Shown: piece by piece, positions 1 to 35,514 of the stretch
How the letters are laid out: every line of letters begins with the position of its first letter
How positions within the stretch are numbered: position 1 is the first letter of the stretch
Assembly (NCBI GenBank): GCA_009787115.1
Contig: WRGQ01000168.1
Span: forward strand, 1 to 36,753
Direction: 5' to 3'
DNA: 36,753 nucleotides
From: Bacteroidota bacterium
Lineage (GTDB): Bacteria; Bacteroidota; Bacteroidia; Bacteroidales; WCHB1-69
Program-made: the position numbers and the translations under genes
Notes under the pieces: generated by a model
Database searches by the model: none
What the model was told of the DNA's origin: nothing
Seen by the model: the letters and a program-made list of their open reading frames with translations, nothing else

Positions 1-372
1 GGTACCGATTTCATTGTGAAGATAAAGATAAGCAACACCAACGGCACCACCAAATATGAAAATCTGGCTTTGACCCACATTCTTCCCTCCGGTTGGGAGA
101 TTTTCAACACGCGATTGACAGATGACGCGCAAACTTACCCAAACACAGGCAAAACGCGCGAATATTCGGAAGGAATTACCTATCAAGACATTCGCGACGA
201 CCAAGTGTTGAGTTACTTTGACCTTCCGCCCGGAAGGAGCATCACGATAAGCATACGGGCGCAGGCAGCCTATTTGGGACGCTTTTTTATGCCCGCAATC
301 GCTTGCCAGGCAATGTACGATAATACGGTCTATGCCCGAACGGAAGGTGTTTGGGTGGAGGTGGGGAAGTAG
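1..372 (+). CDS. Alpha-2-macroglobulin family protein, C-terminal end (5' truncated by window)
   Basis: Frame open from base 1 (GTDFIVKIKISN...). Motifs LPSGWEIFNTR, YQDIRDD and G.F.MPAI...AMYD match the C-terminal domain of bacterial A2M/YfhM proteins. Stop TAG at 370-372. Confidence 0.85.
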   Translation, partial: GTDFIVKIKISNTNGTTKYENLALTHILPSGWEIFNTRLTDDAQTYPNTGKTREYSEGITYQDIRDDQVLSYFDLPPGRSITISIRAQAAYLGRFFMPAIACQAMYDNTVYARTEGVWVEVGK

Positions 373-461
373 TGATTAGTCTTATTGGTTAATTTTTCAT
401 AGCACCTCAAAAAAGAATTAACCTATTTTAAACTGCCACAAGAATAATAGAAAAATATAAA

Positions 462-469
462 TACTTTTG
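462..469 (+). promoter_or_regulatory. Bacteroidota -7 promoter element (TACTTTTG) for the wzx-GT operon
   Basis: Matches TAnnTTTG, about 45 bp upstream of the wzx ATG. Confidence 0.65.
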
Positions 470-512
470 CACTTTCAAAAAACTGTTTACATATTCAGTC
501 TAAATAACCAGA

Positions 513-1964
513 ATGAGCAAAACCTTAAAAGAAAAAACAGCGCACGGCATTTTCTGGAATTTTCTCGACAAGTTTGGGCAACAAGCGCTAAATATCTTAG
601 TGACAATTGTGCTTATGCGTTTCTTTTTGACTCCTGACGATTACGGTTTGGTAAGTGTGATATTTATTGTGAATGCTTTAGGGTTTGCATTTATTGACAG
701 CGGTTTTTCCAATGCGCTCATTCGCAAAAAAGAGGTTACCCAAACCGATCTATCCTCCGTTTTTTATTTTAATATTGTTATTAGTTTATTGTTTTATCTG
801 CTCATTTTCTGTACAGCGCCTCTTATTGCCCATATTTATCACAAACCTGTTTTAACAGGTTTAGTACGCGTTATGGCACTGAGTCTTCCATTATGTTCAA
901 TGGCTTTAGTACAAACCACATTATTAACAAAATCTATTGATTTTAAACGCTTAGCAAGTACAAATCTGATTGCCATTTTTTGTTCAGGCGCTTTGAGTTT
1001 GTTTTTGGCTTGGAAAGGATATGGAGTTTGGGTATTGGTAATTCAACCGTTCTCAATTACATTAGTGAGAAATATCTGTTTATGGAGTATCAGTTCCTGG
1101 CGCCCAAGTTTAATTTACAGCCGACAAAGTATTCAAAATTTATGGAAATACAGTTCAAAACTGTTGATATCTTCAACCGTCAGTATTATTTGTAAAAATA
1201 TTTATTCATCGCTTATTGCTTTTTTTTACCCGTTTAAAGAAGCGGGATTTTATTTTAATGCCAACAAATATTCCGAAATACCCCATCAAACCATTATCCC
1301 TGCAATACATACAACCGTTTATCCTGCTATGACTAATCTTGGCGACAACCCGGAATCATTAAAAAACGCTTTCAGAAAAATGATACGGGTTGCATCTTTT
1401 ATTTTCTTTCCGGTTATGCTGGGTTTAATAGCTACGGCAGATCCTTTAATGTTAACGGTATTTGGAGTAAAATGGATTCCCATTGTACCTTATTTTAAAG
1501 TATTATGTGTTGGGTATCTATTTATGGGAATCAATTCGCTTTATACGGTTATTCTCTTTCTTAAAGGAAAATCTTCAGCCGTTTTATTTTTTAATCTTCT
1601 GTATAGTATTGCATTACTATTAAGTATTGTTCTCACTGTAAGAATAAGTGTATGGTCAATGGCAATCAGTTGGACTATGGTTGGCGTGATTTATACTATT
1701 GTTTATACTTCTTATGTGAGAAAAATGATTCAATATACAGTTATTGAACAACTCAAAGATATTCTGCCCTATTTTATTTTGGCAACAACAATGGGAATAG
1801 GAATTTACTTGTTTTCTGCTCTTATTCATAATAATTTTATATTGGTGAGTGTGCAAATTATTACCGGGGCTATTTTTTACATAAGCGCCTGTTATTTACT
1901 CGGCTCGAAAGTATTTCGCGAAGCAATTGAAATGATTAAAAACAAAACTGTTAACGTGAAATGA
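513..1964 (+). CDS. wzx: Wzx/WzxC-type oligosaccharide flippase (MOP/PST family)
   Basis: 483 aa, many TM segments; LTPDDYGL, DSGFSNALIRKK, SSVFYFN and WGVWVLV-like signatures of PST flippases. Confidence 0.88.
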   Translation: MSKTLKEKTAHGIFWNFLDKFGQQALNILVTIVLMRFFLTPDDYGLVSVIFIVNALGFAFIDSGFSNALIRKKEVTQTDLSSVFYFNIVISLLFYLLIFCTAPLIAHIYHKPVLTGLVRVMALSLPLCSMALVQTTLLTKSIDFKRLASTNLIAIFCSGALSLFLAWKGYGVWVLVIQPFSITLVRNICLWSISSWRPSLIYSRQSIQNLWKYSSKLLISSTVSIICKNIYSSLIAFFYPFKEAGFYFNANKYSEIPHQTIIPAIHTTVYPAMTNLGDNPESLKNAFRKMIRVASFIFFPVMLGLIATADPLMLTVFGVKWIPIVPYFKVLCVGYLFMGINSLYTVILFLKGKSSAVLFFNLLYSIALLLSIVLTVRISVWSMAISWTMVGVIYTIVYTSYVRKMIQYTVIEQLKDILPYFILATTMGIGIYLFSALIHNNFILVSVQIITGAIFYISACYLLGSKVFREAIEMIKNKTVNVK

Positions 1965-2845
1965 AAAATTATATAAAACAAACAATTATGAATAAAGAAC
2001 CTCTATTTTCAGTACTTATAGCCAGTTACAATAATGGGCGCTACCTTGCCAAAGCGCTGAACAGCGTGCTGTCGCAAACCTATAAAAATGTAGAAATTAT
2101 TGTGGTTGATGATGGTTCTACCGATCATTCGCTTGAAGTGTTAGCCTCATTTAAAAACAACCCTGCGATAAAAATTGTACTGAATGAAACCAATAAAGGG
2201 TGTGGATATACCAAACGCAGGTGCGCACAACTCGCTACCGGAGAACTTTGCGGCTTTTTAGATCCCGATGATGAATTGATGCCCACTGCCATTGAGACGA
2301 TGGTACAAGCGCATATTCAAAACCCAAACTGTAGTTTAATAGGGTCGCAACACTACATTTGCAACAAAAACTTAAAACCTATGGGCATATCTGAACATAT
2401 TACCATTCCTGAGGGATATTCCTATTTAACATACGGACGTCATATAACTATTGCTTTCGCTACTTTTAAAAAATATTTATACGATAAAACTTCCGGAATT
2501 TCCGAAGAAATAACGCACGCTGTGGATCAGGATTTGTATTTTAAATTAGATGAAGTAGGAGATGTTTTGATACTCAAAAAAGTTTTATCTAAATACAGGC
2601 GTCATGAAGGTGGAATTTCGGTGGGTAAAAAAGGATTTGGAAAAGCCATGTATTGGCATATCATTTTAATACGCGAGGCATACAAACGAAGAGGTATTTC
2701 GGGCGCAGAACAACAAGCGGTAAAATTAATTACACGCCCTTATCATACTTATAAATACCGGTTTGGAAATCTTGTTCTATCTCCTGTAGAATGGTTACTC
2801 CAATGGATGAAAGTTATCCGGTTTTTATTTTTGAAAAAAAAATAA
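1961..2845 (+). CDS. Glycosyltransferase family 2 (alternative start at 1988)
   Basis: SVLIASYN, IIVVDDGSTD, NKGCG, FLDPDD (DxD) and AVDQDL motifs of the GT-A fold. Confidence 0.9.
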   Translation: MKNYIKQTIMNKEPLFSVLIASYNNGRYLAKALNSVLSQTYKNVEIIVVDDGSTDHSLEVLASFKNNPAIKIVLNETNKGCGYTKRRCAQLATGELCGFLDPDDELMPTAIETMVQAHIQNPNCSLIGSQHYICNKNLKPMGISEHITIPEGYSYLTYGRHITIAFATFKKYLYDKTSGISEEITHAVDQDLYFKLDEVGDVLILKKVLSKYRRHEGGISVGKKGFGKAMYWHIILIREAYKRRGISGAEQQAVKLITRPYHTYKYRFGNLVLSPVEWLLQWMKVIRFLFLKKK

Positions 2846-2880
2846 CATAATCTCGCAACATAATATTTTTCACTGTGAAA

Positions 2881-4089
2881 ATGGAAAAACTTAATATCCT
2901 TTTTATAACAAGTTCCGATGTTTCTCCCTTAAATGGGGGAATAGACAGGGTAGTAATTCTATTGGCAGAAGAATTAAATAAATTACCACAGTATCAGGTT
3001 TTTTCCGCCTATTTTGAGATAAAACACACATCTGCCAACATTTTTAAAAAGAAAATAAAAGTAGATGAAAAGAATATGCTTTCCGAATTATCCGATTTTA
3101 TAAGAGAAAATGAGATTAACATAATCCTTAATAATGTTTTAGAGCGTAAAAAACTCAAATTTCTTTTACCTGCATTAGAAAAAATATCCAAACAGGAGCA
3201 TACTTGTAAAATTTTATATCACTATCATAATCTACCCGGTTTTGAAAAAGCTTCCATCTATCCCAAAATGTATTGGATGCGTTTAAAGAATGGTCAATAT
3301 AAACTACATTATTTTTATAAATTGATGTTACAACTTATGGCACGTTTGACAAGAAACAAATTATTAATACGCTATTGGGTTAAAAAATATCGTGCTCTTT
3401 ATCAATTTTCCGATAAAATAGTTCTACTGTCTCGTGCTTATATCCCTGTTTTTGCAAATTGCGCTCAAGTTTCTGTTAATGATAAACTTGTAGCCATTAA
3501 CAACCCATTATCCTTTTCTGAGAGTATAAAAATTGATTCTATTTATAGCAAACAAAAAGAAGCGCTTATTGTTTCCCGTTTAGATGAAGAACAAAAACGT
3601 TTATCGCTTGCACTGAAAATTTGGAAAAAAATTGAATCTAATGCTCTTCTGTCGGAATGGAAATTAACAATTGTTGGCGATGGAGAAGATAAACTTTATT
3701 ATCAGAACCTTGTAAAAAAATTAAAATTGCAACGCGTATTTTTTGAAGGCGCTCAGAATCCTGAAATCTATTATAAAAGATCTTCTATTTTCATAATGAC
3801 CTCCGCTTATGAAGGGTGGGGATTAACACTAACCGAAGCACAACAAATGGGCGTTGTGCCTGTTGCTTTCGACACTTTTGGCGCGGTGCACGATATTATT
3901 GAAGATAAATATAATGGACTAATTATCCCCAATAATGATATTGAGAGATATGCAGATAAACTTGCATGGCTGATGCAACACGATGAAGAACGTCAAACGA
4001 TGGCTTGTAATGCCGTTGAAAGTTCCAAAAAATTTCATCCGTCTGAAATTGGGAAACAGTGGGTTAAATTGCTTTTTGCTCCCTCATAA
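2881..4089 (+). CDS. Glycosyltransferase family 4 (GT-B); GTG at 2875 is an alternative start
   Basis: GGIDRV N-terminal motif, SRL...QKR, IVGDG and EGWGLTLTEAQ (EX7E). Confidence 0.9.
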   Translation: MEKLNILFITSSDVSPLNGGIDRVVILLAEELNKLPQYQVFSAYFEIKHTSANIFKKKIKVDEKNMLSELSDFIRENEINIILNNVLERKKLKFLLPALEKISKQEHTCKILYHYHNLPGFEKASIYPKMYWMRLKNGQYKLHYFYKLMLQLMARLTRNKLLIRYWVKKYRALYQFSDKIVLLSRAYIPVFANCAQVSVNDKLVAINNPLSFSESIKIDSIYSKQKEALIVSRLDEEQKRLSLALKIWKKIESNALLSEWKLTIVGDGEDKLYYQNLVKKLKLQRVFFEGAQNPEIYYKRSSIFIMTSAYEGWGLTLTEAQQMGVVPVAFDTFGAVHDIIEDKYNGLIIPNNDIERYADKLAWLMQHDEERQTMACNAVESSKKFHPSEIGKQWVKLLFAPS

Positions 4090-5385
4090 TAACAAGTATA
4101 ATGGTCTAACAAATGGGGTGCAGTACACTTGATTTTAAAAAAACAAAAAGCATAATAAACCCAGTGCTTGAAAAAATATTGCCAAAAAAAATCAAATTTT
4201 TGAATTATGAATATACTCTTTGTAACCAATTCTGAGATTGTTGCTACTTGTGACGGAATCCATCGGATAACATCAACACTTTCACAGTATTTTACCATAA
4301 AACATGAATATAAATGTTTCCTTGCATACCTTGCACATAACAAAGCAGAACCAAAAACTGAGTTTGAAGAAAAATTTCAAGTTGACAAGAGTAATATTTA
4401 TGAACAGTTTAGCGATTTTTTGACAAGAAATAAGATTGATATTGTGATTTGTCAGCACGTAGTTGGTACCCGAAAAATATTTGAACAAATGAAACTTGCA
4501 GTAAATAAAACACAAAACTGCAAGTTTGTTTATTGTTTTCATCTTGCACCCGATTATTATTTTGTCCACCCAAATCTCAACGCAGAAATTTTTCGCTTTT
4601 TTGATACATTTAAGAATTTTAGAAAAATCGTGGTTGGTCTATTACCAAAATTATTGTATAACATTTTAGTCAGTAAAGAAATACAAAAAGAACTTGCAAT
4701 TTACAATGATTATTTTGATAAAATAGTTTTATTGTCCAAGCGATATATTCAGGATTATAACAAATTATCAAATATTCCTGCATGGAAACAGAAAGATGTA
4801 GTTGCCATACCTAATATTCTGACTTTTAATGAAAAAATTTCCGAAAAGGATATTGAAAGTAAAGAAAATATAGTTCTAATTGTAGCCCGTTTGTCTGAAC
4901 GGCTAAAACGAATTTCCCAAAGTCTAAAGATTTGGAAAAAAGTGCAACAAAGAACTGACATAAAAGATTGGCGACTTATTATTCTCGGTATTGGCGATGA
5001 CGAAAAGTATTATAAAAAACTTGTGAAAAAACTTGATATAAAAAAGGTTTATTTTGAAGGCAGACAAAATCCGATTGAGTATTACAAAAAAGCATCTGTT
5101 TATATGATGACATCTGCTTCAGAAGGTTGGGGATTAACCCTAACCGAAGCACAACAGATGGGCGTTGTGCCGATTGTTTTCGATAGTTTTGGCGCGGTGC
5201 ACGATATTATTGAAGATAAGTATAATGGACTAATTATCCCCAATAATGATATTGAGAGATATGCAGATAAACTTGCATGGCTGATGCAACACGATGAAGA
5301 ATGTCAAACGATGGCTTGTAATGCCGTTGAAAGTTCCAAAAAATTTCATCTGTCTGAAATTGGGAAACAGTGGGTTAAATTGCTT
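3876..5385 (+). repeat. 199-bp direct repeat, copies at 3876-4074 and 5187-5385
   Basis: Manual alignment at offset 1311 shows 3 mismatches (3909/5220, 3991/5302, 4040/5351). Looser similarity extends back to about 3811/5122. Confidence 0.95.
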
Positions 5386-5400
5386 GAAGATACTCTATGA
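4207..5400 (+). CDS. Glycosyltransferase family 4 (GT-B), paralogue of the preceding gene
   Basis: DGIHRI, ARL...LKR and EGWGLTLTEAQ motifs; C-terminus nearly identical to the upstream GT4. Confidence 0.9.
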   Translation: MNILFVTNSEIVATCDGIHRITSTLSQYFTIKHEYKCFLAYLAHNKAEPKTEFEEKFQVDKSNIYEQFSDFLTRNKIDIVICQHVVGTRKIFEQMKLAVNKTQNCKFVYCFHLAPDYYFVHPNLNAEIFRFFDTFKNFRKIVVGLLPKLLYNILVSKEIQKELAIYNDYFDKIVLLSKRYIQDYNKLSNIPAWKQKDVVAIPNILTFNEKISEKDIESKENIVLIVARLSERLKRISQSLKIWKKVQQRTDIKDWRLIILGIGDDEKYYKKLVKKLDIKKVYFEGRQNPIEYYKKASVYMMTSASEGWGLTLTEAQQMGVVPIVFDSFGAVHDIIEDKYNGLIIPNNDIERYADKLAWLMQHDEECQTMACNAVESSKKFHLSEIGKQWVKLLEDTL

Positions 5401-6125
5401 AACAACTTCTGTACGTATTAATCATAGTATTATCTGTAAATCACGCATTTGCAAATGATAATGTTCGCAGGGACACTGTGCCTTTTTCCTATTACATTGT
5501 ACCTTCGGCTTTGATAACTTATGGCATAATAACAAGATTCTCATGTGATTTGCAGAATTTTGACCATAAGATTGACGATAAAGTTCAACAAAATATTCAC
5601 CGCCGATATAAATTTGATGACTATATTCAATTTGTGCCATACGTTGGCATTTACGGATTGGATTTGTGCGGTGTAAAGGCTAAACATAATTTTTTAGACA
5701 GAACGCTTGTACTTGGTACTTCATTGATTTTTGCAACTGCTACCGTTCAAGGTACAAAATATCTTACTCACATAGAACGTCCTGACGGCTCAAATAAACA
5801 TTCTTTTCCGTCAGGTCATACGAGTACGGCTTTTTTGGGTGCGCATATTTTGTTTAGAGAATATAAAGATGTGTCGCCCTGGATTGGCGTAGCAGGTTAC
5901 GGCTTTGCCTTTACAACTGCTTCAATGCGTATCATCAACCGCAAACACTGGTTTAGCGATGTGGTTACAGGGGCAGGCATTGGTATTCTTTGTGCGGAAT
6001 TAGGGTATTTGATGTTGCCTGTCTGGCATAAACTTTTTAAAATAAAACAAAAAGATAAAGGTCTGGCAATTATGCCAATAATCACTGTAGATAATTTTGG
6101 AATAGGCGGAATAATGATTTTCTAA
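5397..6125 (+). CDS. PAP2-family membrane phosphatase
   Basis: K-x6-RP (KYLTHIERP), SFPSGH and R-x5-H-x3-D (RIINRKHWFSD) catalytic motifs; signal-peptide-like N-terminus; ATGA overlap with the GT4 stop. Confidence 0.9.
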   Translation: MKQLLYVLIIVLSVNHAFANDNVRRDTVPFSYYIVPSALITYGIITRFSCDLQNFDHKIDDKVQQNIHRRYKFDDYIQFVPYVGIYGLDLCGVKAKHNFLDRTLVLGTSLIFATATVQGTKYLTHIERPDGSNKHSFPSGHTSTAFLGAHILFREYKDVSPWIGVAGYGFAFTTASMRIINRKHWFSDVVTGAGIGILCAELGYLMLPVWHKLFKIKQKDKGLAIMPIITVDNFGIGGIMIF

Positions 6126-6141
6126 ATAGAAAAAAGTTTTC

Positions 6142-8604
6142 TTATTTTGCTATTATTGTTTTCATTTTTTTGTTTCTCACAAAGCCATAAGCAATTCCCC
6201 CAACAATCGTTCCATACATAATAATGATACACAGTATTGAAACCGGCTCCGCTTTTTTCAGGGTGTCGGGTTTAAATTCAAAACGGATATGATGTTCGCC
6301 GGCGGGCACGTTCAATGCTCTTAATGTGTAGTTTACCCTGAAATGTCCGGTCGGTTGTCCGTCAATAAAGGCATGCCAGCCGTAGGGATAGTAGATTTCG
6401 GAAAAGACTACGATGCCGTCTTTATCGGAGTGCGTTTGGTATTCAAGTGCATTCGGTGCGTATGAAAGAAATGTTATCTGCGCTGTTGTATCTTTTCCGG
6501 CAACAAAATCTTTCACAAAATCGGCAAATTTGACATCTAAAACAGCCGTTGTTTTTAAGTCAATCTCATTTAATGCGTCGCATTCTTCGTTTGGCGTGTT
6601 TACAACGAGCACAGAGTCAATGTACCACGCATTACCCATAGCAAGCGGATTGTATTGTGGTACCGGATTTTTATTGGCATCGGGCACAATGAAATATTTC
6701 GTATTGAGCATATTGATTACACTCATATTCATTTTAGTAGAAATATGTTCGGAAATTAAATCCTGATACCGGCGCAATTTTGCAGCGTGATATCCGCCGA
6801 TATGTTTCAAATAGTAAGAAGTTCTAGATTCATTAAACGTGTTGGTTGTGAGGTTTAAAACTCTGAAATGCGGATCCGGATCCTGCAAAATACGTTCCTC
6901 ATAAGGTTGTTTTTTAAAGTAACTGTTCTCCGATTTTGGAGAAACGAAGTTATTATCATTAAAAAAACGCTTACTTACCGTCCACATATCTGCCAAGATT
7001 AAAATACCCAAAATGCCAATAAAATAAGGGAGTTTCAGTTTTTCTTTTACAAACAGCCACAATGTTCCGGCACCCAACAAAATAAAGGCAAACGAACGGA
7101 AAGCATCAGTTCGCAGCATAGAGGCTCTTTCTGCAACAATAGCATTGCATAGCCATTCCGGAAGTTGAGCAAAAACAGATTCGTCATTCGGAGAAGTGAA
7201 ATCGTAGAACATACCTCCGAACAGAGCAATTATGAGACAAATTCCTGCAGTAATTCCGGATGAAATATAGATATTTTTAATTAATTTCTCTTTTGTAATT
7301 TGTTTCTCCATAATTGCTTTAATCGCCAGAAAACCCAGCAGCGGCATCGTTACTTCGGCAACTACCAAAATAGAAGAGACCGTCCTGAACTTGTTATACA
7401 TCGGAAAATAGTTGAAAAAGAGTTCGGTAAGCGGCATAAAGTTTTTCCCCCACGAAAGCAGAATAGAGAAAAGAGTTGCCACCAGCAAAGCCCATTTGTA
7501 GGGACCTTTCACGATACATAATCCTAACACAAACAGAAAACAGATGATTGCGCCGATATAAACGGGACCGGATGTAAAAGGTTGGTTTCCCCAATAAACA
7601 GGTACATTCTTACAAAAATCTGTCGAATTTTTTTTAGAGACACCGTTTTTCATTAATTCATCATAAACGATAGAGTTTGTGCCCACATCATAATTGGAGG
7701 AAGCGCCCATAAAGTTGGGAATGAGCAGTGTCATTGTTTCATCAATACCATAACTCCATTGGGTAGCATAATCCAAATCTAACCCTTTTGTTTTATTTTG
7801 ATTGTCAGTGTCTTTCACCAACTCGGAGTGTCCGCCCCGCATGGTTTCTTTTGCATATTCCTGATTTAATTTTATGGTCGTATAACGCGTTCCCAAACCA
7901 ATGCCAACGGCAGCGCCGAAAAGGAGTGTTGCAATCAAAAAATCTTTTATTCTCTTCTCTTTAATATGAATAAAGAGTTCAGCTATGAGCAAGCACCCAA
8001 TAAGCATAAAATAATAGTATGCCATTTGGGGGTGTTTGGTAATTCCCATTATACAGCCAATCATTGTAAATACTGCACCCCATATATGGTTTTTATTAAA
8101 AATAAAGAAGAACCCTGCAATAACCGGTGCCATTTGTGCAATGGCAATCGCTTTGTTCACGTGTCCGGCTTCAATAATAATAAAGAAATAGGAAGAGAGT
8201 GTAATCGCCATAGCGCCCACAATACTAAGCCAGGTGTTCACTTTGAATGCTTTGAGTAATATAAAGAAACCGAGCAGATACCAAATCAGCAGTTTCAGAG
8301 TATCTTTAAATCCAAGTGAAACAACCATACTCACAGGTTTCAGATAGGTTTCGGATTGAATTTTTCCACCCCCAGTCTGGTAAGTGGGCATTCCCGAAAA
8401 CATAGAACCTGACCAAAAAGTATCATCTCCTGTCTTTTCATTATACACTTTTGCTTCCTGATACATTCCTTTCCAACTTAGAATATCGCCGCTCTGCACA
8501 ACCTTCCCCTCTAAAATAGGAGAACAGTAAATAATAGTAAACAGAATGAAAATCACTATGGCTATTAAGTAAGGAAGCCATTTTCTTAATAAATCTTTAT
8601 TCAT
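6142..8604 (-). CDS. YfhO-family membrane protein (GT-C type glycosyltransferase)
   Basis: 820 aa, multi-TM; W..SMFSGMPTY, YATQWSYG, YWG.QPFTSGPVY.G, IGGYHAAKLRRYQD and C-terminal FSEIYYP.GW.A.IDG...VNY.LRAL.VPAG.H.I.F.F.P. Confidence 0.85.
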   Translation of the reverse strand: MNKDLLRKWLPYLIAIVIFILFTIIYCSPILEGKVVQSGDILSWKGMYQEAKVYNEKTGDDTFWSGSMFSGMPTYQTGGGKIQSETYLKPVSMVVSLGFKDTLKLLIWYLLGFFILLKAFKVNTWLSIVGAMAITLSSYFFIIIEAGHVNKAIAIAQMAPVIAGFFFIFNKNHIWGAVFTMIGCIMGITKHPQMAYYYFMLIGCLLIAELFIHIKEKRIKDFLIATLLFGAAVGIGLGTRYTTIKLNQEYAKETMRGGHSELVKDTDNQNKTKGLDLDYATQWSYGIDETMTLLIPNFMGASSNYDVGTNSIVYDELMKNGVSKKNSTDFCKNVPVYWGNQPFTSGPVYIGAIICFLFVLGLCIVKGPYKWALLVATLFSILLSWGKNFMPLTELFFNYFPMYNKFRTVSSILVVAEVTMPLLGFLAIKAIMEKQITKEKLIKNIYISSGITAGICLIIALFGGMFYDFTSPNDESVFAQLPEWLCNAIVAERASMLRTDAFRSFAFILLGAGTLWLFVKEKLKLPYFIGILGILILADMWTVSKRFFNDNNFVSPKSENSYFKKQPYEERILQDPDPHFRVLNLTTNTFNESRTSYYLKHIGGYHAAKLRRYQDLISEHISTKMNMSVINMLNTKYFIVPDANKNPVPQYNPLAMGNAWYIDSVLVVNTPNEECDALNEIDLKTTAVLDVKFADFVKDFVAGKDTTAQITFLSYAPNALEYQTHSDKDGIVVFSEIYYPYGWHAFIDGQPTGHFRVNYTLRALNVPAGEHHIRFEFKPDTLKKAEPVSILCIIIMYGTIVGGIAYGFVRNKKMKTIIAK

Positions 8605-8629
8605 AAACTAATTTTAAAATTTGGAAGTG

Positions 8630-8637
8630 CAAAAATA
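8630..8637 (-). promoter_or_regulatory. -7 promoter element (TATTTTTG) for the YfhO-family gene
   Basis: Reverse complement of caaaaata, about 25 bp upstream of the ATG. Confidence 0.6.
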
Positions 8638-8706
8638 AACATTATTTAAAAGCAATTTAGAAAAACTTAAAAAGGGATGTAAAGGAGATTTATGATTAAA
8701 AACTCC

Positions 8707-8714
8707 TATCTTTG
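8707..8714 (+). promoter_or_regulatory. -7 promoter element (TATCTTTG) for the rfbF operon
   Basis: TAnnTTTG followed by CA, about 20 bp before the ATG. Confidence 0.7.
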
Positions 8715-8733
8715 CACGTCAAAATAAAATTGT

Positions 8734-9507: not shown

Positions 9508-9522
9508 TTTGTACATATTTAT

Positions 9523-11141: not shown

Positions 11142-11146
11142 ACAAA

Positions 11147-13034: not shown

Positions 13035-13080
13035 TCTGTTTTTGTGCGCAAAATAAGTAGAAATAATGAATAAATTTTGC

Positions 13081-13088
13081 TACTTTTG
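13081..13088 (+). promoter_or_regulatory. -7 promoter element (TACTTTTG) for ugd
   Basis: TAnnTTTG about 30 bp before the ATG. Confidence 0.65.
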
Positions 13089-13118
13089 CACTTTTATTTT
13101 AATAAAACCTAAATAAGT

Positions 13119-14441: not shown

Positions 14442-14470
14442 AATTAAGATCAAAAGTTTATAACAGAATA

Positions 14471-17644: not shown

Positions 17645-17667
17645 GTAAAATTGTTTTTTATTGTTGG

Positions 17668-17675: not shown

Positions 17676-17737
17676 GTAACTTTTGTGCAAAAAAGACTAA
17701 TAATACACAAAAAACTATTGCTATCTAAAAAAAATGT

Positions 17738-18428: not shown

Positions 18429-18519
18429 TTTATCAAGAGGACAATCCATACAGCATAGGAGAGCGGTGGGCGGTAAGCGGTAAGCGGTGAAAATCTTACG
18501 GTCTTGCGCTCTTGATAAA
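18429..18519. repeat. 91-bp element with 11-bp terminal inverted repeats enclosing four GCGGTRR heptamers
   Basis: TTTATCAAGAG (18429-18439) / CTCTTGATAAA (18509-18519); GCGGTGG-GCGGTAA-GCGGTAA-GCGGTGA at 18463-18490. Confidence 0.8.
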
Positions 18520-29305: not shown

Positions 29306-29318
29306 AATATTTATTTTT

Positions 29319-29401
29319 TAGTGATTAATGATTAATGATTAGTGATTAGATATTAGAGTTTGATGTTTTATTCGTAATTGTTAATTATTAATTGTTAATT
29401 G
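29319..29401. repeat. Two heptamer arrays in the yceD-rpmF junction
   Basis: TAGTGATTAATGATTAATGATTAGTGATTAG (29319-29349) and CGTAATTGTTAATTATTAATTGTTAATTG (29373-29401). Confidence 0.85.
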
Positions 29402-29938
29402 TTTCAAGGCGTCCCATCGGGGGTCAGTTTCCGTATCGTTGTGTTCATCGGTTGTTGGGGCGAGTTCTGCGAGTTTTTTTAGCATTTCAGGATTGCATGT
29501 GGGATTTCCGTTTTCGTCGTTAGGGTGAATCAGTTGAGTAGGGAGGGCAAGTTCTATCGCTTCGTATAAAAAGTGAGTAAGATCAAGTTCGTGCGCTTTT
29601 TCGTGGAGTTGCCAGATGTTTTCATCATTTTCAAACGATTCATCAAGATGAGAGACAAAATTGACCACCAAAAAATCTGAAAAATCCAAAGGCAATGTCA
29701 AAAAGTCCAAACATCTATCGCAAATTACGGTTATTTCACCGTTAAAATGGAACTTGAGTGAGAGCATTTTGGCGCTTTTTTCCATCTCTATTTGCACTTT
29801 GATGTTACCCTCTTCAATTTCAGTCAATCCTGTAAGTTCAAAGAACGCTTTATCACAAATCATTGAATATTTGTGATTTCCAACATCAATGCCGGAAAGT
29901 CTCAGTACAAAATCATCTCTTAAATCGGTCATTTTCAC
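29381..29938 (-). CDS. yceD: DUF177/YceD family protein
   Basis: CDRCLD, LYE.I.LALP...IHP and C-terminal DPRWDALK.L; upstream of rpmF. Confidence 0.9.
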   Translation of the reverse strand: MKMTDLRDDFVLRLSGIDVGNHKYSMICDKAFFELTGLTEIEEGNIKVQIEMEKSAKMLSLKFHFNGEITVICDRCLDFLTLPLDFSDFLVVNFVSHLDESFENDENIWQLHEKAHELDLTHFLYEAIELALPTQLIHPNDENGNPTCNPEMLKKLAELAPTTDEHNDTETDPRWDALKQLTINN

Positions 29939-30036: not shown

Positions 30037-30044
30037 TATTTTTG
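30037..30044 (+). promoter_or_regulatory. -7 promoter element (TATTTTTG) for the ABC ATPase
   Basis: TAnnTTTG followed by CCA, about 62 bp before the ATG. Confidence 0.6.
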
Positions 30045-30069: not shown

Positions 30070-30104
30070 CTCTAACCTCTAACCACTAACCGCTAACCGC
30101 TAAA
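30070..30104 (+). repeat. Five-unit heptamer array in the ABC ATPase 5' leader
   Basis: CTCTAAC-CTCTAAC-CACTAAC-CGCTAAC-CGCTAAA, ending 2 nt before ATG 30107. Confidence 0.9.
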
Positions 30105-30106
30105 CC

Positions 30107-30856
30107 ATGCCCCCCGTTATCAAAACAGAATCCCTCACCAAGCGTTTCGGCAATTTTACCGCCGTGGATAACATTTCGTTTGAGGTAGAGAAAGGAGAGA
30201 TTTTTGGATTTCTGGGAGCGAACGGCGCGGGGAAAACTACTGCCATGAAAATGTTGATTGGCATTAGCAAACCCACCTCCGGAAGAGGATGGGTGGCAGG
30301 ATATGATATCAAGACCCAAGCCGAACAGATAAAAAAGAGCATTGGCTATATGAGTCAAAAGTTTTCTTTATACGACGATTTGAAAGTGTGGGAAAACATT
30401 CGGCTCTACGCCGGTATTTACGGTATAAAAGAGAAAGAGATAGCCGAAAAAACAGAAATCGTGTTGCAAAAATTAGGTTTTGAGAATGAGCGTAATACAT
30501 TAGTAAAATCGCTGCCATTGGGATGGAAACAACGGTTAGCCTTTTCCGTAGCCATTTTCCACGAACCGCAAATTGTGTTTTTAGATGAACCCACCGGCGG
30601 CGTTGACCCTGCTATGCGCCGCACATTTTGGGAGATGATTTATGAAGCCTCCGCACGAGGTATCACCATATTTGTTACTACCCATTATATGGATGAAGCC
30701 GAATACTGCAACCGCGTCTCTATTATGGTGGACGGCAGAATTGATGCGTTGGATTCTCCCAAAAATTTAAAACAGCATTTTAAGGTGAACAGTATGAATG
30801 AGGTGTTTCATAAACTTGCGCGAGAGGCAAAACGTGGAGATACTCGTGCTTTTTAG
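30107..30856 (+). CDS. ABC-2 type transporter ATP-binding protein (YbhF-like)
   Basis: GANGAGKTT Walker A, GYMSQKFSLY, degenerate signature LPLGWKQR, FLDEPTGGVDP, TTHYMDEAEYC. Confidence 0.92.
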   Translation: MPPVIKTESLTKRFGNFTAVDNISFEVEKGEIFGFLGANGAGKTTAMKMLIGISKPTSGRGWVAGYDIKTQAEQIKKSIGYMSQKFSLYDDLKVWENIRLYAGIYGIKEKEIAEKTEIVLQKLGFENERNTLVKSLPLGWKQRLAFSVAIFHEPQIVFLDEPTGGVDPAMRRTFWEMIYEASARGITIFVTTHYMDEAEYCNRVSIMVDGRIDALDSPKNLKQHFKVNSMNEVFHKLAREAKRGDTRAF

Positions 30857-30858
30857 GG

Positions 30859-30900
30859 AAAGGATAGTTATCTTTTTGGGAAGTGTTAACTATCTTTTTT
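30859..30900 (+). terminator. Probable intrinsic terminator after the ABC ATPase
   Basis: AAAGGATAGTTA (30859-30870) / TAACTATCTTTT (30887-30898), one G:U pair, T-run. Confidence 0.55.
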
Positions 30901-31211
30901 GCAGGCATAGCCTACTTGTGGCTACTGAACATAATCGCAACACCTCTCACCGTACACCACCTGCCGACATTGCCGCCCGCAAACGCTTTCTGTTTCGTGA
31001 TACCGTTGTTGCAGGTTTTCGGTTGCCGTCGCGCAATAGTAAACCCCGTTTTCTTCGTACTCGTAACCGGATATAACCGGTTTTTGTACTTCAAAAATAA
31101 AATTTCTTATTACAGCATAACTGTAATAATCAAGGTTTAAAGCAGGAAGGGTAGGGGGGGTGTCATGAGTTTTGCTTCCTGTTCTTGAACAGTAAAATTA
31201 AAGTTATTTTT

Positions 31212-31427
31212 TTATTGGTCACACTTCCATTCTATGATTTTGCACGTTTCTTTTGAAATCTTAATATATCCACCACTACCACCCATTCTCAAGATACCGT
31301 CATTTATATAGCGATAGTCAACCAAAATAAAAGTTTCTTCTTCGGTAATTGTTCTTGTAAGGCGTGTTAGATTTTTGTATACTCTTTTCATAATACACTT
31401 AATATTTTTTGTTATTATCCGCCCCAT
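31212..31427 (-). CDS. Small hypothetical protein or fragment, resembling the C-terminus of NTF2-fold immunity proteins
   Basis: GGSGGYIKISKETCKII ending; AT-rich; directly follows the pseudogene at 31468-32040. Confidence 0.35.
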   Translation of the reverse strand: MGRIITKNIKCIMKRVYKNLTRLTRTITEEETFILVDYRYINDGILRMGGSGGYIKISKETCKIIEWKCDQ

Positions 31428-31467
31428 AAATTAAAATTTTGTATTAGTCGTTGATAATTGCCTTTTT

Positions 31468-32040
31468 TCAATATTTGTTGCTATTCCTTATTTTTAAATC
31501 TGTTAGTTTAGTTAAAAAATCACAGCATTGATAATATTTATTTTTCTTACTTGGTGACCACCTGTCAACTACATGATATTGAAAATCATTTTTCCCTTCT
31601 AAAATCCATTGAGCGCCATCAAAACCCATAACTCTTTTATTGGTTTCCATATTCCAAAAATCAATTTGATTTAGCAAATTCTTAAATTCAATCCAAGAAT
31701 TTTCGTCAAGTTCTTTTTGTTTCACTATCATAATCCATTTTTCCGGATTATGCCATACATCATCACAATATTTCCAACCATAATATTTTCAACATAGCAT
31801 ATATTTACAATCTTGTTTTTCTATTCGTATAATAATAGGATGATCGCGACTACGCAACCATGTAAATCTATAAATTTCATTTAAGTCATCCGGGCTATGC
31901 CATTCTATTGGTCCAGGCTGACGTGTATGGGTATGGAATGCGGTTACATCGCCGTCAGGTTTTTGTGACATACCTACTTTTCCATTTCTACCTCCAACTG
32001 ACAAACCTACTAAATTCGGAAATGTTTTTTTCATACGCAA
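31468..32040 (-). pseudogene. Chimeric pseudogene: HxH..SxxD toxin-like fragment fused to a conserved Bacteroidota hypothetical protein, interrupted by one in-frame TGA
   Basis: The two ORF-track entries (31789-32040, 31468-31731) share a frame and are separated only by TGA at 31789-31791. Joined they read EIYRFTWLRS.DHPIIIRIEK...IDFWNM...G.DGAQWILEG....YHVVDRWSP. Confidence 0.7.
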
Positions 32041-32171
32041 TAATTTTAGTTAATAAATCAGGGGTGAAAATAGAAAAATATTAATCAAAAACAAAGTACG
32101 TTTGTTTTATTAATTATACGAAAAACACTATTCCCGCGTTTCTTCCTTGGTTTTTTAAAATTTTATATTGT

Positions 32172-33920
32172 ATGAAAAAAGTTAATCTGTTTGTATTTTT
32201 CTTCCTGACTGTTATTGTTTCATTTTCACAAAACCCAACTTATCAAGTGAATAACCAAAAAATGAATCAATTGCTAAAAAATATTAACGATATGTATTTG
32301 GATACAGTGAATTTTGATGTGTTGGTAGAAAAAGGAGTAACAGAGATGCTGAAAGAATTAGATCCCCACTCTGCATATATTTCTAAAAAAGATGTGCAAC
32401 AGGCAAACGAGCCGCTCATCGGCTCTTTCGACGGCATTGGGGTTACTTTTCAAATTATTAAAGATACTATTAACGTGATGGAAGTTATAGTGAACGGTCC
32501 TTCCGAAAAAGTAGGCTTAAAAGCAGGAGATAAGATTGTAAAGGTGGACACTACAACGGCTTGTGGCAAACATGTAAATAACAAATGGGTGGCAGACCAC
32601 CTGCGCGGACCTAAAGGAACTAAAGTTGCTGTTTTTGTAAAAAGAGGAAAAAATCCTGAACTTTTAGAGTTTACTATTACCCGCGACAAGATTCCAATGA
32701 ACAGTATCAACGTGTATTTTATGGCAGATAAAAATACGGGATACATCTGTTTGGAGCGTTTTGCCCAAACCTCCACGCAGGAATTGCGCGATGCCATGAC
32801 CCGCCTCAAAGCACGCGGTATGAAAAACCTTATCCTTGACCTGCGCGGAAATACCGGCGGTTACCTGCAGGCGGCATTTGAAATTTCCAACGAATTTATA
32901 GGAGCGGACAAAATGATTGTTTATACGGATAACTTCCGAAAAACAGGCGAAACATTCAAATCCAACGGAAAAGGCGAGTTTCAAAAAGGTAAGTTAGTGG
33001 TCTTAGTAGATGAAGGCTCAGCCTCTGCCAGCGAGATTGTCTCAGGCGCCGTACAGGATTGGGACCGCGCCCTGATTATGGGACGCAGGACTTTTGGAAA
33101 AGGACTTGTGCAAAAACCCATCTACCTTGCCGATGGCTCGCAAGTACGACTCACCATCTCCAAGTATTATACTCCTTCAGGAAGATGTATCCAACGCCCG
33201 TATGAAGATGGTTTGGACAACTACTTCAACGACCTGAACACCCGCTCAAAACACGGCGAACTATTAACCGCCGACAGTATCAAATTTCCCGATTCCCTCA
33301 AATATCAAACCGCAAAAGGAAGAACTGTTTATGGCGGCGGCGGTATCATGCCCGATATCTTTATCCCGTTGGATACTTCCCGCTACTCTTCACTTTACAA
33401 TGAAATGTACAGAAAAGGGATTATCAGCGGTTTTACATTAGATTATATGGAGCAAAACAGAGAGCAACTCAAAGCTAAATATGCCACAATGGAGGATTTT
33501 AAAAACAACTTTGAAGTCTCTGAACAGTTATTTCAAGAGTTAATGGATTACACCCATAAAGAGGGAGTGAAAGATGTCATTGAGTTTCAGTTTTCCAAAC
33601 GATTGGAAGGGTTTGTAAAAGATAAAGCCTCATCATTGGATTCATTATATAATTCTTTGGAAGATTTGAATACAAATGAACAGTTTAAAGAGATGCTCAC
33701 TAAATACATTACAGAATCTTTTAACGAGTCAATGCGGTTGCGCAATTTGAATAAAGCCAATGAGTTTATTAAAGATGCTTTGAAATATGAAATAGCAAGG
33801 AATCTGTTCAGTTACGGCGAAGCACGCCAAATCTTTTTAATGAAAGATGATGGTTTTCTAAAAGCGTTGGAAGTGATTAGCAACGATAAGATTTTTAAGA
33901 AATTTAATGTAGAGCAGTAA
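32172..33920 (+). CDS. S41A carboxy-terminal processing protease (CtpA/Prc family)
   Basis: LDPHS.Y, PDZ GIGV...GPSEKVGL, LDLRGN.GG, SASASEIVSGAVQD, TFGKGLVQ (Ser/Lys dyad), YYTPSGR.IQ. Confidence 0.93.
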   Translation: MKKVNLFVFFFLTVIVSFSQNPTYQVNNQKMNQLLKNINDMYLDTVNFDVLVEKGVTEMLKELDPHSAYISKKDVQQANEPLIGSFDGIGVTFQIIKDTINVMEVIVNGPSEKVGLKAGDKIVKVDTTTACGKHVNNKWVADHLRGPKGTKVAVFVKRGKNPELLEFTITRDKIPMNSINVYFMADKNTGYICLERFAQTSTQELRDAMTRLKARGMKNLILDLRGNTGGYLQAAFEISNEFIGADKMIVYTDNFRKTGETFKSNGKGEFQKGKLVVLVDEGSASASEIVSGAVQDWDRALIMGRRTFGKGLVQKPIYLADGSQVRLTISKYYTPSGRCIQRPYEDGLDNYFNDLNTRSKHGELLTADSIKFPDSLKYQTAKGRTVYGGGGIMPDIFIPLDTSRYSSLYNEMYRKGIISGFTLDYMEQNREQLKAKYATMEDFKNNFEVSEQLFQELMDYTHKEGVKDVIEFQFSKRLEGFVKDKASSLDSLYNSLEDLNTNEQFKEMLTKYITESFNESMRLRNLNKANEFIKDALKYEIARNLFSYGEARQIFLMKDDGFLKALEVISNDKIFKKFNVEQ

Positions 33921-33977
33921 AAAATAAGATTAAACTCATTAATCATTAATTCTTATTATTCAATTGCACCGATTGCA

Positions 33978-34015: not shown

Positions 34016-34058
34016 AGTGTATTAGATATATTTAATACAATTATTCTTTACTGCAGGT

Positions 34059-34496
34059 TTAGTGTTTAGCGCAGCAGCCTTCTTCTTTTTCTTTGCAGCA
34101 CTTTTCTTTGTGGCATGCTAAAACTTGGTCAATGATAGCCTTTTTCTCATCTAAGGTAAGATTGTCGAAATCTTCCCATTTAGCTTTAAATTCTGCGCAT
34201 TTAGCTGCTTTCTCAGGGCATACTTCTTCTACTTCTTCACCTTCTTTTGCACAACATTTTGCTTCACATTTTGCTTTACATTCATCAATGAAAGCTTTCA
34301 TGTCAGCAACGAGAGCAGTTTGTTGAATTTCATCTAAATCAGCCCATAAGTCCCAATTTTCGAACATAGCTTCCTGTTCGGGAGTTAAAGCGCAACATGT
34401 TTCTTCTGCTACTACTTCAGTTGCTTTTTCTTTTTTTGTTCCGCATGAAACAAAAACCAGGCAAGCAACAGCCAATAAAATCATAAGTTTTTTCAT
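34059..34496 (-). CDS. Cys-rich acidic lipoprotein of unknown function
   Basis: Lipoprotein signal MKKLMILLAVACLVFVS-C; 13 further Cys including four CC pairs; own -7 element (TATTTTTG, 34558-34565, -) and terminator. Confidence 0.8.
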   Translation of the reverse strand: MKKLMILLAVACLVFVSCGTKKEKATEVVAEETCCALTPEQEAMFENWDLWADLDEIQQTALVADMKAFIDECKAKCEAKCCAKEGEEVEEVCPEKAAKCAEFKAKWEDFDNLTLDEKKAIIDQVLACHKEKCCKEKEEGCCAKH

Positions 34497-34642
34497 AATA
34501 AAATTGTTTTTAGTTAATAAATAAATGAATGAATGATTTTCTTAAAAAATTATGTGGCAAAAATATATAATATAATGTAATGAAGAAATAATTAAGTTTT
34601 TTTAACAATAAAATTCAAGATAAAATGCTATATAATTTATTA

Positions 34643-35449
34643 CTAACATGTTATATTAAATATTTTAATAGTTTCAGCACACTGTTTCACATCGTGAACG
34701 CGCAATATTGAGGCTCTGTGGCAAAGCGCCAGAGTATTTAATGTAACAGTTCCGGTTAAAGATTCCGCAGGAGATACCTGTAAGAGTTCTTGAATCATTG
34801 ATTTTCTTGAGATCCCTGCCAAAATTGGAAAGTTCAGAATGGAAAGTGTTTCTAATTGATTGATAAGGTAATAATTTTGTTCTATAGTTTTGCCAAATCC
34901 AAATCCGGGGTCAATAATAATATCTTTAACTCCTTTTACAATCAGTTTTTCAATATTGTTTCCAAAAAATGAGAGCATTTGAGGTATCAGTTCTTTTGTT
35001 GCAATGGGTTGGTTACGGTTGTTATGCGTTAAAACGTATGGTATCTGGTATTTACCTGCTACTTCAAACATATTGGGGTCGTTTCCTCCCGAAACATCGT
35101 TAATTATGGCAGCGCCTTCGCCAATCGCCATTTCTGCCACATTTGCCCGAAATGTATCCACAGAGATAAGGGCTTCCGGAAAATGGGAAAGAATGAGACG
35201 CAGATACTTCATTATGGATTCTAATTCCTTATTTTCATCAACATCAACAGCGTTTGGTTTGGTAGAAACTGCTCCCAGATCCACAATAGCAGCTCCTTCT
35301 TCCAATATTTGTTCTACACGTTTTAAAACAGCCGTTTCGGAAAGATACCTGCCCCCATCAAAAAAAGAATCCTCAGTAACATTGAGAATCCCCATAATTA
35401 TTGGGGTTTCTAATGATATCAGGGTTTGGTTTATGCGAAGGGAATACAT
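34643..35449 (-). CDS. folP: Dihydropteroate synthase
   Basis: IMGILNVT.DSFFDGG, DLGA.STKP, SVDTFRA, IINDVSGG, DPGFGFGK, SRKS, RVHDV. Confidence 0.95.
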   Translation of the reverse strand: MYSLRINQTLISLETPIIMGILNVTEDSFFDGGRYLSETAVLKRVEQILEEGAAIVDLGAVSTKPNAVDVDENKELESIMKYLRLILSHFPEALISVDTFRANVAEMAIGEGAAIINDVSGGNDPNMFEVAGKYQIPYVLTHNNRNQPIATKELIPQMLSFFGNNIEKLIVKGVKDIIIDPGFGFGKTIEQNYYLINQLETLSILNFPILAGISRKSMIQELLQVSPAESLTGTVTLNTLALCHRASILRVHDVKQCAETIKIFNITC

Positions 35450-35514
35450 AGTGATTAGATGATTATGATACAGGGTTTAAGATTTAAGGTTTAAACGTTA
35501 TACCCTAATCACTA
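35449..35514. repeat. 10-bp perfect inverted repeat bracketing the A2M-folP spacer, with an internal heptamer array
   Basis: TAGTGATTAG (35449-35458) / CTAATCACTA (35505-35514); GGTTTAA-GATTTAA-GGTTTAA (35474-35494). Confidence 0.85.

Follow-up and report, generated by a model that had tools for sequence, protein, structure and literature searches.

Why should a bacterial contig carry, at the ends of many of its genes, short tandem repeats that keep to a period of 7 bp and differ in unit sequence? The question is raised by the 36,753-nt stretch of DNA analysed here (hereafter the window), which is contig WRGQ01000168.1 of GCA_009787115.1, a metagenome-assembled genome (MAG) of a bacterium of the Bacteroidales. 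The original prediction, made from the letters of this DNA, held that several families of such arrays sit specifically at gene boundaries, that a fixed period with variable units is not expected from simple slippage, and that the arrays are scars of past gene gain and loss left by a dedicated and hitherto undescribed system. The MAG (G000, in which the window is contig C168) measures 1.89 Mb in 170 contigs, with 38% G+C and a completeness of 94.7%; G001–G006 denote six congeners, other C-numbers the contigs of G000, and L-numbers the loci fetched for comparison. DNA of the window is present in four termite-gut metagenome runs, its UvrA shares 87% identity with that of a MAG labelled Bacteroidales bacterium, and over the larger aligned genes it shares 72–82% DNA identity with the six congeners. 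Tandem Repeats Finder (TRF) was run on the window and on the whole genome, and exact arrays were counted by period alongside. Published sources are cited by accession.

We found that the period-7 arrays are real and well beyond chance. Period 7 accounts for 502 of the 1820 TRF rows of the genome, as against 101 rows for period 6 and 196 for period 8, and exact arrays of at least three copies number 89, 1 and 12 at periods 7, 6 and 8, respectively, which is the enrichment that the original prediction had proposed checking. At period 7, 241 arrays of at least 2.5 copies were observed, whereas three simulations under a third-order Markov model gave a mean of 3.7. Most of the period-8 arrays are built of TAATCA-family units changed by one base, and those of period 6 are chance-like. 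Merged TRF arrays in G000 come to 473, 173 of them inside called open reading frames (ORFs), and the arrays of the window, where 11 of 37 TRF rows have period 7, are part of a genome-wide population of about 470 heptamer arrays in ten or so recurrent families, of the kind known as short tandemly repeated repetitive sequences (STRR) or long simple sequence repeats (LSSR). Placement relative to gene ends is likewise non-random, as had been proposed: of the 194 strict arrays, 96 lie between genes, 43 run across a gene end and 55 fall within coding sequence, where 200 rounds of random placement gave expectations of 16.5, 5.3 and 172. Thus 139 of the 194 lie in or across spacers against 22 expected (6- to 8-fold enrichment), and 4.4% of non-coding bases are covered by arrays.

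The abundance of such arrays varies among relatives. Per 100 kb of sampled DNA, exact period-7 arrays number 10.3 in G000, 16 in G002, 8.8 in G001, 8.3 in G005, 6.3 in G006, 5 in G011, 4.2 in G003 and 0 in G004 (80 kb sampled), the last having no period-7 excess in TRF either (7 rows, vs 9 at period 8 and 12 at period 9); none was found in 13 other genomes, from each of which 13–40 kb were sampled. A survey of 401 Bacteroidota genomes found three copies of TAATCAC, allowing one mismatch at most, in 17 of them, from 13 of 180 genera; the reversed-pattern control of this survey is a rotation of the same repeat and hence uninformative. A period-7 array is present at 14 of 80 UvrA loci (26 arrays), and within those 14 the arrays of period 5, 6, 8 and 9 number 1, 0, 5 and 0.

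The units themselves recur. The strict arrays use 53 of 1171 possible unit classes, and two arrays share a class with a probability of 0.046, compared with 0.0036 expected; the leading families (AAATCTT, AATTACG, AATCATT, AATCACT, AAAGCAG, AAGTGAC and ACGAGTG) are 27–60 times commoner than is predicted by singleton 7-mer frequencies in non-coding DNA. Because unit families recur so far above the 7-mer expectation, slippage of arbitrary local sequence is insufficient to explain them, and on this point the original prediction was right. The bias in the phase at which arrays start and end is accounted for by positions within the unit that vary and so cut exact runs short, an example being the change of CG to CA in AATTACG. 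A composite leader bears on how the families are shared among loci: in order, it is made of an AATTACG array, the connector AA(A)C(C)TATAG, a GTCACTY array, an A-rich stretch, a TAATCAY array and an ATG. With its connector it precedes unrelated genes on C168 (the window), C156, C31 and C143; it stands without the connector on C65 and in part on C96 and C164. None of 40 other genomes of the family yielded the connector, and the only matches in G002, G003, G005 and G006 were chance ones in coding sequence. The presence of this leader at four unrelated loci of G000, and not in relatives, argues that array-bearing sequence has been copied between loci within the lineage.

At orthologous junctions of the six congeners, arrays have been gained, lost, resized or replaced, so that the insertion and deletion polymorphism that had been suggested as a check is present at the kdtA-olsF and yceD-rpmF junctions and in the UvrA linker. 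The kdtA-olsF spacer of G000 is 254 nt long and holds four array families; at the same junction G003 has about 1.5 TAATCAC units and a hairpin resembling repetitive extragenic palindromes (REP-like), G006 has the hairpin only, G002 has no arrays, and the inverted-arm element of the window (Table 1) is not present in any of these three. The corresponding spacer of G001 consists entirely of TCTTTAA(A), drifting unit by unit into ATCTCAA. Between yceD and rpmF there are 4 copies of TAATCAY in G000, 5 in G003 and about 30, homogenised to TAACCAC, in G006, with remnants in G004 and G001, and G002 has GAAGTTA, GTCACTT and AAACATT arrays instead; the 3′ end of yceD is a CAATTAA-like repeat in all six congeners. 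The UvrA linker holds in-frame GAATTAC-type arrays in G000, G002 and G006, supplemented in G002 by an AAACTCA array and split in G006 by a 33-nt hairpin insert. No linker array is found, and no local precursor is visible, in G004, G001 or ten more distant Bacteroidota, and the lack of a precursor in G004 and G001 points to seeding from elsewhere. Apart from the linker, the UvrA of G002 (L001) has an extra insert of about 20 residues, SDNNMEISPFGRNELAAERN, at aligned residues ~150–175, which is missing from the window protein.

The arrays of the window are not scars of gene gain or loss, as had been supposed. They are flanked by housekeeping genes, and there are no cargo genes at the three polymorphic junctions. 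The one clear difference in gene content lies at 30856–32172, the ABC ATPase gene and ctpA being adjacent in G003 and G004, and there are no heptamer arrays at the edges of this stretch. It is 1.3 kb long, with four small ORFs that have no Pfam matches, and because pieces of it match C152, C170 and three places in contig C8 of G001, it must hold repeated or mobile DNA.

Two properties of the arrays are new here, namely a handedness, G-rich after stops and C-rich before starts, and the invariably inverted arrangement of related pairs within a spacer. When counted on the coding strand over 183 arrays in co-directional spacers, stop-proximal arrays have more G than C in 61 cases and more C than G in 24, start-proximal arrays have more C than G in 46 and more G than C in 10 (rho −0.52), and among 27 spacers with at least two arrays 15 run from G-rich to C-rich and none runs the other way. 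Where the first and last arrays of a multi-array spacer are related, they are inverted relatives in 9 spacers and direct relatives in 0.

The same architecture surrounds a family of small genes, and the association of heptamer arrays with four-helix-bundle genes, which the original prediction had raised, is real across Bacteroidota. This family, PF05635 (S23p/Avd-like), resembles Avd (PMC10053308). G000 has two such genes, on C156 and C140. That on C156 (655–1032, minus strand) lies between (AGTTTAG/ATATTAG)n at 622–677 and its reverse complement at 1045–1077, and gene and arrays together form an indel of about 470 nt relative to G003, in which the genes on either side meet directly and their stops overlap; the insertion showed neither a target-site duplication nor a defined end. 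We scored the upstream flank against the reverse complement of the downstream flank and set the threshold at the 95th percentile of 139 control small ORFs. Eleven of 18 four-helix-bundle loci of relatives exceed it (7 per 139 expected among controls), and both flanks are strongly 7-periodic in 5 of the 18 and 1 of the 139. When 30 other Bacteroidota genomes were sampled independently at one locus each, 20 loci exceeded the same score as against 2 of 59 neighbouring ORFs, which share flanks with the cassette, making the periodicity measure non-discriminating in this sample. Over the phylum, inverted heptamer arrays were counted around the gene at 20–23 of the 30 loci. There, period 7 is found in 19 of 20 strongly periodic flanks, and G exceeds C in 25 of 30 upstream flanks and C exceeds G in 26 of 30 downstream ones. 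Arm units also found as solo arrays in G000 include GTCACTY (L168, L207, L213), AAATCTT-like units (L162, L206), AAACTCT/A (C156, L231) and GCGGTGA, and fragments of four-helix-bundle genes lie beside arrays on C132 and C117, the former being 22 aa directly 5′ of a TAATCAC array and a start codon.

The window holds no four-helix-bundle or GxxExxY remnant, yet its kdtA-olsF spacer is, as far as its layout can tell, an ORF-less version of the inverted-array cassette. The arms (21837–21892 and 22043–22098) are imperfect, 56 nt long and 71% complementary, with 94% complementarity over the outer 17 nt (21843–21859 and 22090–22106), and the spacer RNA folds as a panhandle (−48.5 kcal/mol, z −1.95). 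A parallel is offered by the 23S rRNA intervening sequence (IVS) of Coxiella, which has an S23p ORF, a 28-bp terminal stem, cutting by RNase III and two to three tandem GACAGAT units upstream that vary among strains (PMC4990558). The S23p IVSs of Coxiella and Leptospira, which are thought to be selfish or mobile, share with the present elements a stem of terminal inverted repeats enclosing a loop, in which an S23p ORF may or may not be present, and the Coxiella IVS in addition has purine-rich tandem heptamers, in strain-variable number, before the ORF. The elements described here differ in lying between protein genes rather than in rRNA helices, in having tandem heptamers as both arms, and, in the window, in being ORF-less. 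In the published text available, we found nothing on a link between heptamers and S23p beyond a single remark on the Coxiella intervening sequence. We regard the four-helix-bundle link as the most promising lead to the origin of the repeats.

The account that we favour, and to which we give an even chance of being right, is that these are slippage-maintained heptamer repeats, seeded by copying, partly as the arms of IVS-like cassettes, and filtered by selection. Replication slippage and homogenisation would preserve each array and alter its length where it stands, and new loci would be seeded by the copying of existing arrays and not by local birth. At least part of the spread would be that of small IVS-like hairpin cassettes whose arms are such arrays and which at other loci enclose a four-helix-bundle (S23p) gene. 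Which arrays, orientations and lengths persist would then depend on selection acting on the genes next to them, with G-poor arms retained as leaders and G-rich ones after stops.

Several observations weigh against this account. The account offers no reason for the preference for period 7, and no repair defect explains the excess, because MutS and MutL were present in all five genomes tested, which led us to reject such a defect, and XseA is untied to array load (no match in G000 and array-poor G008, but one each in G001, G002 and G004). The number of four-helix-bundle genes is untied to array load as well, contrary to the co-occurrence that had been suggested: array-rich G000 has 2, and array-poor G004 and G008 have 7 and 10. 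The first and last arrays belong to unrelated families in 20 of 32 multi-array spacers, and most arrays are either solo or so paired; same-family pairs 60–2500 nt apart show no inverted excess (13 inverted, 15 direct); and folding with z < −2 is found for 17 of 111 array spacers and 22 of 150 array-free ones, so that there is no general excess of structure. Selection for G-poor leaders could by itself produce the G-first handedness. Because the gene calls are crude (longest ATG ORFs of at least 80 aa, n = 1521, leaving 9.9% of the genome non-coding), distances to starts are approximate. Finally, the contigs reveal no length polymorphism within a population: one contig of run X2, from another sample and study, is identical to the window at 20858–22645, across three arrays including 21837–22107, and all other run contigs end at arrays. 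Because contigs break at arrays, length variation within the population is neither shown nor excluded.

Alternatively, the arrays could be the arms and relics of a selfish family of S23p/Avd-like cassettes, the protein recognising the arms, and ORF-less derivatives and solo arms would have spread as REPINs do; we consider this possible but doubtful. Such a family could account for the inverted arrays at four-helix-bundle loci of relatives and across the phylum with their conserved polarity and period, for the absence of the C156 cassette from an intact G003 junction, for the gene fragment adjoining a TAATCAC array on C132, for arm units that elsewhere match the solo families of G000, for the inverted arms of the window spacer 21837–22107, and for the heptamers upstream of S23p in the Coxiella IVS (PMC4990558). 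However, two four-helix-bundle genes face about 470 arrays in at least ten families, with the opposite situation in G004 and G008, the C156 insertion lacks a target-site duplication or defined end, solo arrays and arrays paired with unrelated units predominate, the window has no remnant of the gene, no partner enzyme was identified, and the 59 neighbouring ORFs used as controls share their flanks with the cassette. REPIN-RAYT systems likewise have a small gene inside inverted short repeats that are also scattered singly and in inverted pairs through spacers; the heptamers differ from them in being tandem rather than palindromic and in flanking four-helix-bundle genes rather than Y1 transposases, so that the parallel would be one with a non-enzymatic partner. 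To our knowledge the four-helix-bundle fold has no catalytic activity, and we know of no nuclease or transposase activity of such bundles. Tentatively, one can imagine the STRR-type heptamer arrays as cognate arms of these cassettes, to which an oligomeric protein would bind, one unit per subunit, promoting their copying or retention, with hosts co-opting the arms. The complete element would then run from a G-rich array through the four-helix-bundle ORF to an inverted C-rich array, as a 23S rRNA IVS is built, and its ORF-less and one-armed derivatives would occupy the spacers. If this were true, host genes would be drawing on the arms for G-poor leaders, stop codons, the cores of signal peptides, and linkers.

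Arrays upstream of genes often reach the start codon. In G000, 73 of 226 end between 10 nt inside the ORF and 10 nt before the called start, and 18 of 47 TAATCAY arrays are followed within 60 nt, many at 1–15 nt, by an ORF of at least 60 aa. G makes up 6.0% of array bases in leaders vs 10.9% of other leader bases, and the leaders of the olsF-like, rpmF and ABC ATPase genes are near-unstructured (−2.1, 0 and −1.1 kcal/mol over 81–103 nt, 81 nt for the ABC ATPase). Boxes resembling TAnnTTTG, which we take to be the Bacteroidetes −7 promoter consensus, occur at 22015–22022 (inside the kdtA-olsF element) and 30037–30044, as well as at about 17737–17744 and 467–474; such boxes lie just 5′ of array leaders and of the tRNA, which suggests that the arrays at 22024–22107 and 30072–30103 would be transcribed as 5′ untranslated regions. 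One might therefore see in the arrays functional cis-elements, the G-poor repeats acting as Shine-Dalgarno-independent leaders or as sites for single-strand RNA-binding proteins of the S1, Csp or RRM type, and the G-rich or paired arms as intercistronic processing or stability hairpins. Besides orientation bias, start-codon adjacency and G-poor unstructured leaders, this is consistent with the retention of TAATCAY in the rpmF leader of G000, G003 and G006 (remnants in G004 and G001), with the occurrence of TAATCAC in 13 genera, with initiation in Bacteroidetes being tuned by mRNA structure and not by Shine-Dalgarno sequences (PMC6847099), and with the regulatory roles proposed for TAACTGA repeats (PMC4679880) and for heptamers in Nostoc (bioRxiv 10.1101/2022.06.06.494920). 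Congener leaders, however, are without arrays or have other units, array-poor G004 manages without them, the same families occur inside ORFs and after stops, and the downstream genes share no function, so that we judge a general role of this kind unlikely.

Arrays inside genes bear on a further alternative. CTGCTTT/CCTTCTG in sense orientation encodes the LLSAFCF-like cores of about 20 N-terminal signal peptides, including that of the window's GH38 protein, whereas from the complementary orientation, AAAGCAG, hydrophilic AESRKQK-like sequence is translated inside ORFs. C-terminal sorting domains of the type IX secretion system (T9SS) have AATTACG (ELRITNY), AAAATTC, ACTCGTC and ACACCGC arrays at fixed places in at least 13 tails; all four tails tested match PF18962 end to end. 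Arrays within ORFs take the orientation without stop codons. Coding arrays survive only in frame and in a tolerated orientation, as hydrophobic signal peptides, hydrophilic loops, or the strand-like T9SS tails and UvrA linker. In principle such arrays could be contingency loci at genes for secreted or surface proteins, where a change of one 7-nt unit would shift the frame or the leader length and so switch expression, as 7-base repeats drive phase variation of hmw in Haemophilus influenzae (PMC12721329, PMC8262952). The number of signal peptides and T9SS tails with arrays would fit, as would one tail on C152 that is frameshifted relative to its paralogue on C119, and the hmw loci share with the present arrays short repeats in leaders and 5′ coding regions of surface-protein genes and a unit that shifts the frame. 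Yet the signal-peptide arrays found are all in frame, no AAAGCAG/AAGGCAG array lies just 5′ of a called start, most arrays of G000 flank housekeeping genes, no switching has been observed, and the contigs, which cannot show length variants, contain none; we therefore regard contingency as very improbable. Beginning with its AAAATTC array, the C152 tail (3220–4830) is frameshifted relative to the close paralogue at C119 8900–10564, a pattern that fits a change in unit number that is not a multiple of three; the gene may be a pseudogene or in an off state. The GH38 alpha-mannosidase gene (14471–17644, minus strand) has no orthologue in five congeners at E ≤ 1e-30, and the polysaccharide-synthesis block beside it is patchy among congeners, yet a heptamer family characteristic of G000 makes up the GH38 signal peptide.

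That a template-copying enzyme (a reverse transcriptase, whether like that of a diversity-generating retroelement or like telomerase) writes the arrays, as their fixed period, recurring families and association with an Avd-like family might suggest and as the proposed co-occurrence with reverse transcriptase genes would imply, is hardly credible, since PF00078 has no match in G000 at its 94.7% completeness, nor in G001, G005 or G006, and does have one in array-poor G004.

The features of the window are listed in Table 1. Most of the array coordinates originally reported agree with the 11 TRF rows; 370–379, 22024–22030 (one unit alone) and the outer parts of 35449–35514, however, amount to only 1–2.5 units. 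Placement at gene boundaries holds for eight of the 11 TRF arrays, which touch a stop codon or lie 0–16 nt from a start or stop, but not for 26799–26831, inside uvrA, or for 18462–18488, which adjoins a broken PIN-like ORF and lies within the loop of a 16-nt inverted repeat (18429–18444 and 18504–18519). The stretch from 500 to 17700 had been thought free of arrays, but one lies at 17593–17623, in the signal-peptide codons of the GH38 gene. Genes near arrays are kdtA, an olsF-like acyltransferase gene, rimM, an M24 aminopeptidase gene, uvrA, rdgB/Ham1, rpmF, yceD, an ABC ATPase gene, ctpA (S41 peptidase), folP and alpha-2-macroglobulin-like genes. Read on the minus strand, the folP spacer has a GTGATTAG arm at the stop, TTAAAYC units (35476–35494, 2.7 copies) and a TAATCA arm that extends up to the ATG of folP, and it folds as a hairpin (−14.5 kcal/mol, z −4.6).

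Table 1. Heptamer arrays and array-bearing spacers in the window, with copy number and, where available, percentage match
Feature	Position	Strand	Context
CTGCTTT/CTGCCTT-type array, ×4.4, 79%	17593–17623	−	In GH38 gene; encodes signal-peptide hydrophobic core MKKITFYLSVFCLLLSTSTGFAQ
AGCGGTR array, ×3.9, 85%	18462–18488		Spacer between broken PIN-like ORF and gene starting at 18614
Inverted-arm element, ORF-less	21837–22107	+	Occupies spacer from kdtA stop to olsF-like start
GTGATTA/ATGATTA array, ×3.6, 83%	21837–21861	+	G-rich arm; kdtA stop codon (21851–21853) within array
CGAATTA (AATTACG family), ×2.1	22031–22045	+	olsF-like leader
GTCACTY, ×~2.6	22055–22072	+	Preceded by connector AAACCCTATA; read from sequence, below TRF score
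TAATCAC, ×3.6, 100%	22083–22107	+	C-rich arm; last base adjoins olsF-like ATG (22108)
GAATTAC, ×4.7, 100%	26799–26831	−	33-nt in-frame insert NYELRITNYEF in UvrA linker between the two ABC halves
TAATCAY (sense strand), ×4.6	29318–29349	−	rpmF leader, 12 nt 5′ of ATG (29305–29303)
CAATTAA-type, ×4.1	29375–29403	−	Encodes final residues and stop of yceD
CTAACCG-type, ×4.6	30072–30103	+	3 nt 5′ of ABC ATPase ATG (30107); TAnnTTTG-like box upstream
TCATTAA, ×2.1	33936–33950	+	16 nt past ctpA (S41 peptidase) stop
Spacer with imperfect outer parts of 1.5–2.5 units	35449–35514	−	From alpha-2-macroglobulin-like stop to folP start
TAGTGATTAG, ~1.4 units	370–379	+	Stop of first (partial) alpha-2-macroglobulin-like ORF; too short for an array

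The only Rfam match in the window is a tRNA at 17755–17826. Between it and the AGCGGTR array lies a broken small ORF (17985–18390, minus strand), PIN-like by eye, whose longest piece, of 75 aa, gave nothing in Pfam; it has the look of an accessory gene that has decayed close to a tRNA gene. In runs X1–X3, contigs end at the arrays at 22107, 26804–26828, 29314 and 35495, and word depth rises 3- to 18-fold there; these spikes reflect k-mers common to many loci or organisms in the samples. Contig joints at 26830, 22107 and 29355 were considered as rearrangements and rejected, for they join arrays of different loci instead.

Two other small-gene families have flanking repeats of their own. GxxExxY (TIGR04256) genes, which the original prediction had also linked to heptamer arrays, do lie inside inverted tandem arrays at 14 of 20 loci (L177–L200), but with a period of about 8–11 and not 7, and none is in the window; the loci come from 11 genomes, including contigs C103 and C110 of G000, and their units are of the CACAAAGG / CACAGAG type. 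GxxExxY is thus a third small-gene family with cognate flanking repeats. Genes for Y1_Tnp (RAYT-like) proteins lie inside inverted REP-like palindromic hairpins at all eight loci examined (L233–L240; from G000, G001, G002, G004 and G008), and we rejected RAYT as a mobiliser of the heptamers because its flanks are such hairpins and not heptamer arrays. Since REP-like hairpins also occur in the kdtA-olsF spacer of G003 and G006 and in the UvrA array of G006, a system of the REPIN-RAYT type coexists with the heptamers.

The repeats are of a kind already known and hence do not in themselves make up an undescribed system: heptamers adjoining start codons have been published (PMC4679880, PMC4692102), and among long simple sequence repeats heptamers are the commonest, with slippage suggested as the way in which they arise (Mrazek 2007, cited in both of these papers). 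With the STRR and LSSR of cyanobacteria, Xanthomonas, Burkholderia and others, the present arrays share an excess of heptamers, a mostly intergenic location, several families per genome, polymerase slippage as a proposed mechanism, and length and sequence that vary between close relatives at locations that are often kept. They differ in their host, a termite-gut Bacteroidales MAG, and in units that are AT-rich and not G-quadruplex-forming, and they further show the G-then-C handedness, the inverted pairing within spacers, and the arrays that sit in frame in UvrA, signal peptides and T9SS tails. Strictly, the name STRR belongs to heterocystous cyanobacteria and the STRR1–3 units; both host and units differ here.

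Another counterpart is the TAACTGA repeats that precede start codons in Beggiatoaceae, cyanobacteria and five Bacteroidetes; further heptamers share these spacers, and relatives are without the repeats (PMC4679880). Common to both are forward arrays a few nucleotides from the starts of unrelated genes, including ribosomal protein genes, reverse sets after stops, and relatives without arrays at the same junctions, whereas many families coexist in G000 and one dominates there. The 60 commonest TRF unit classes of G000 do not include TAACTGA. Two copies of it, allowing no more than one mismatch, were found at L169 and four others of 232 loci, which include only parts of G000, and none in the window or in those parts of G000; TAACTGA was encountered only at one four-helix-bundle locus of G015 and, with one mismatch, at four unrelated loci.

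In practical terms, the arrays break short-read assemblies and can mislead gene callers at starts, stops and signal peptides. Neither PMC4679880 nor PMC4692102 assigns heptamer repeats an accepted origin or function. What is added here is a clean set of orthologous junctions that reveals the pace of array turnover, a fixed handedness, arrays that are translated, and a phylum-wide association with four-helix-bundle genes, and it is this association that makes the origin of the repeats experimentally approachable.

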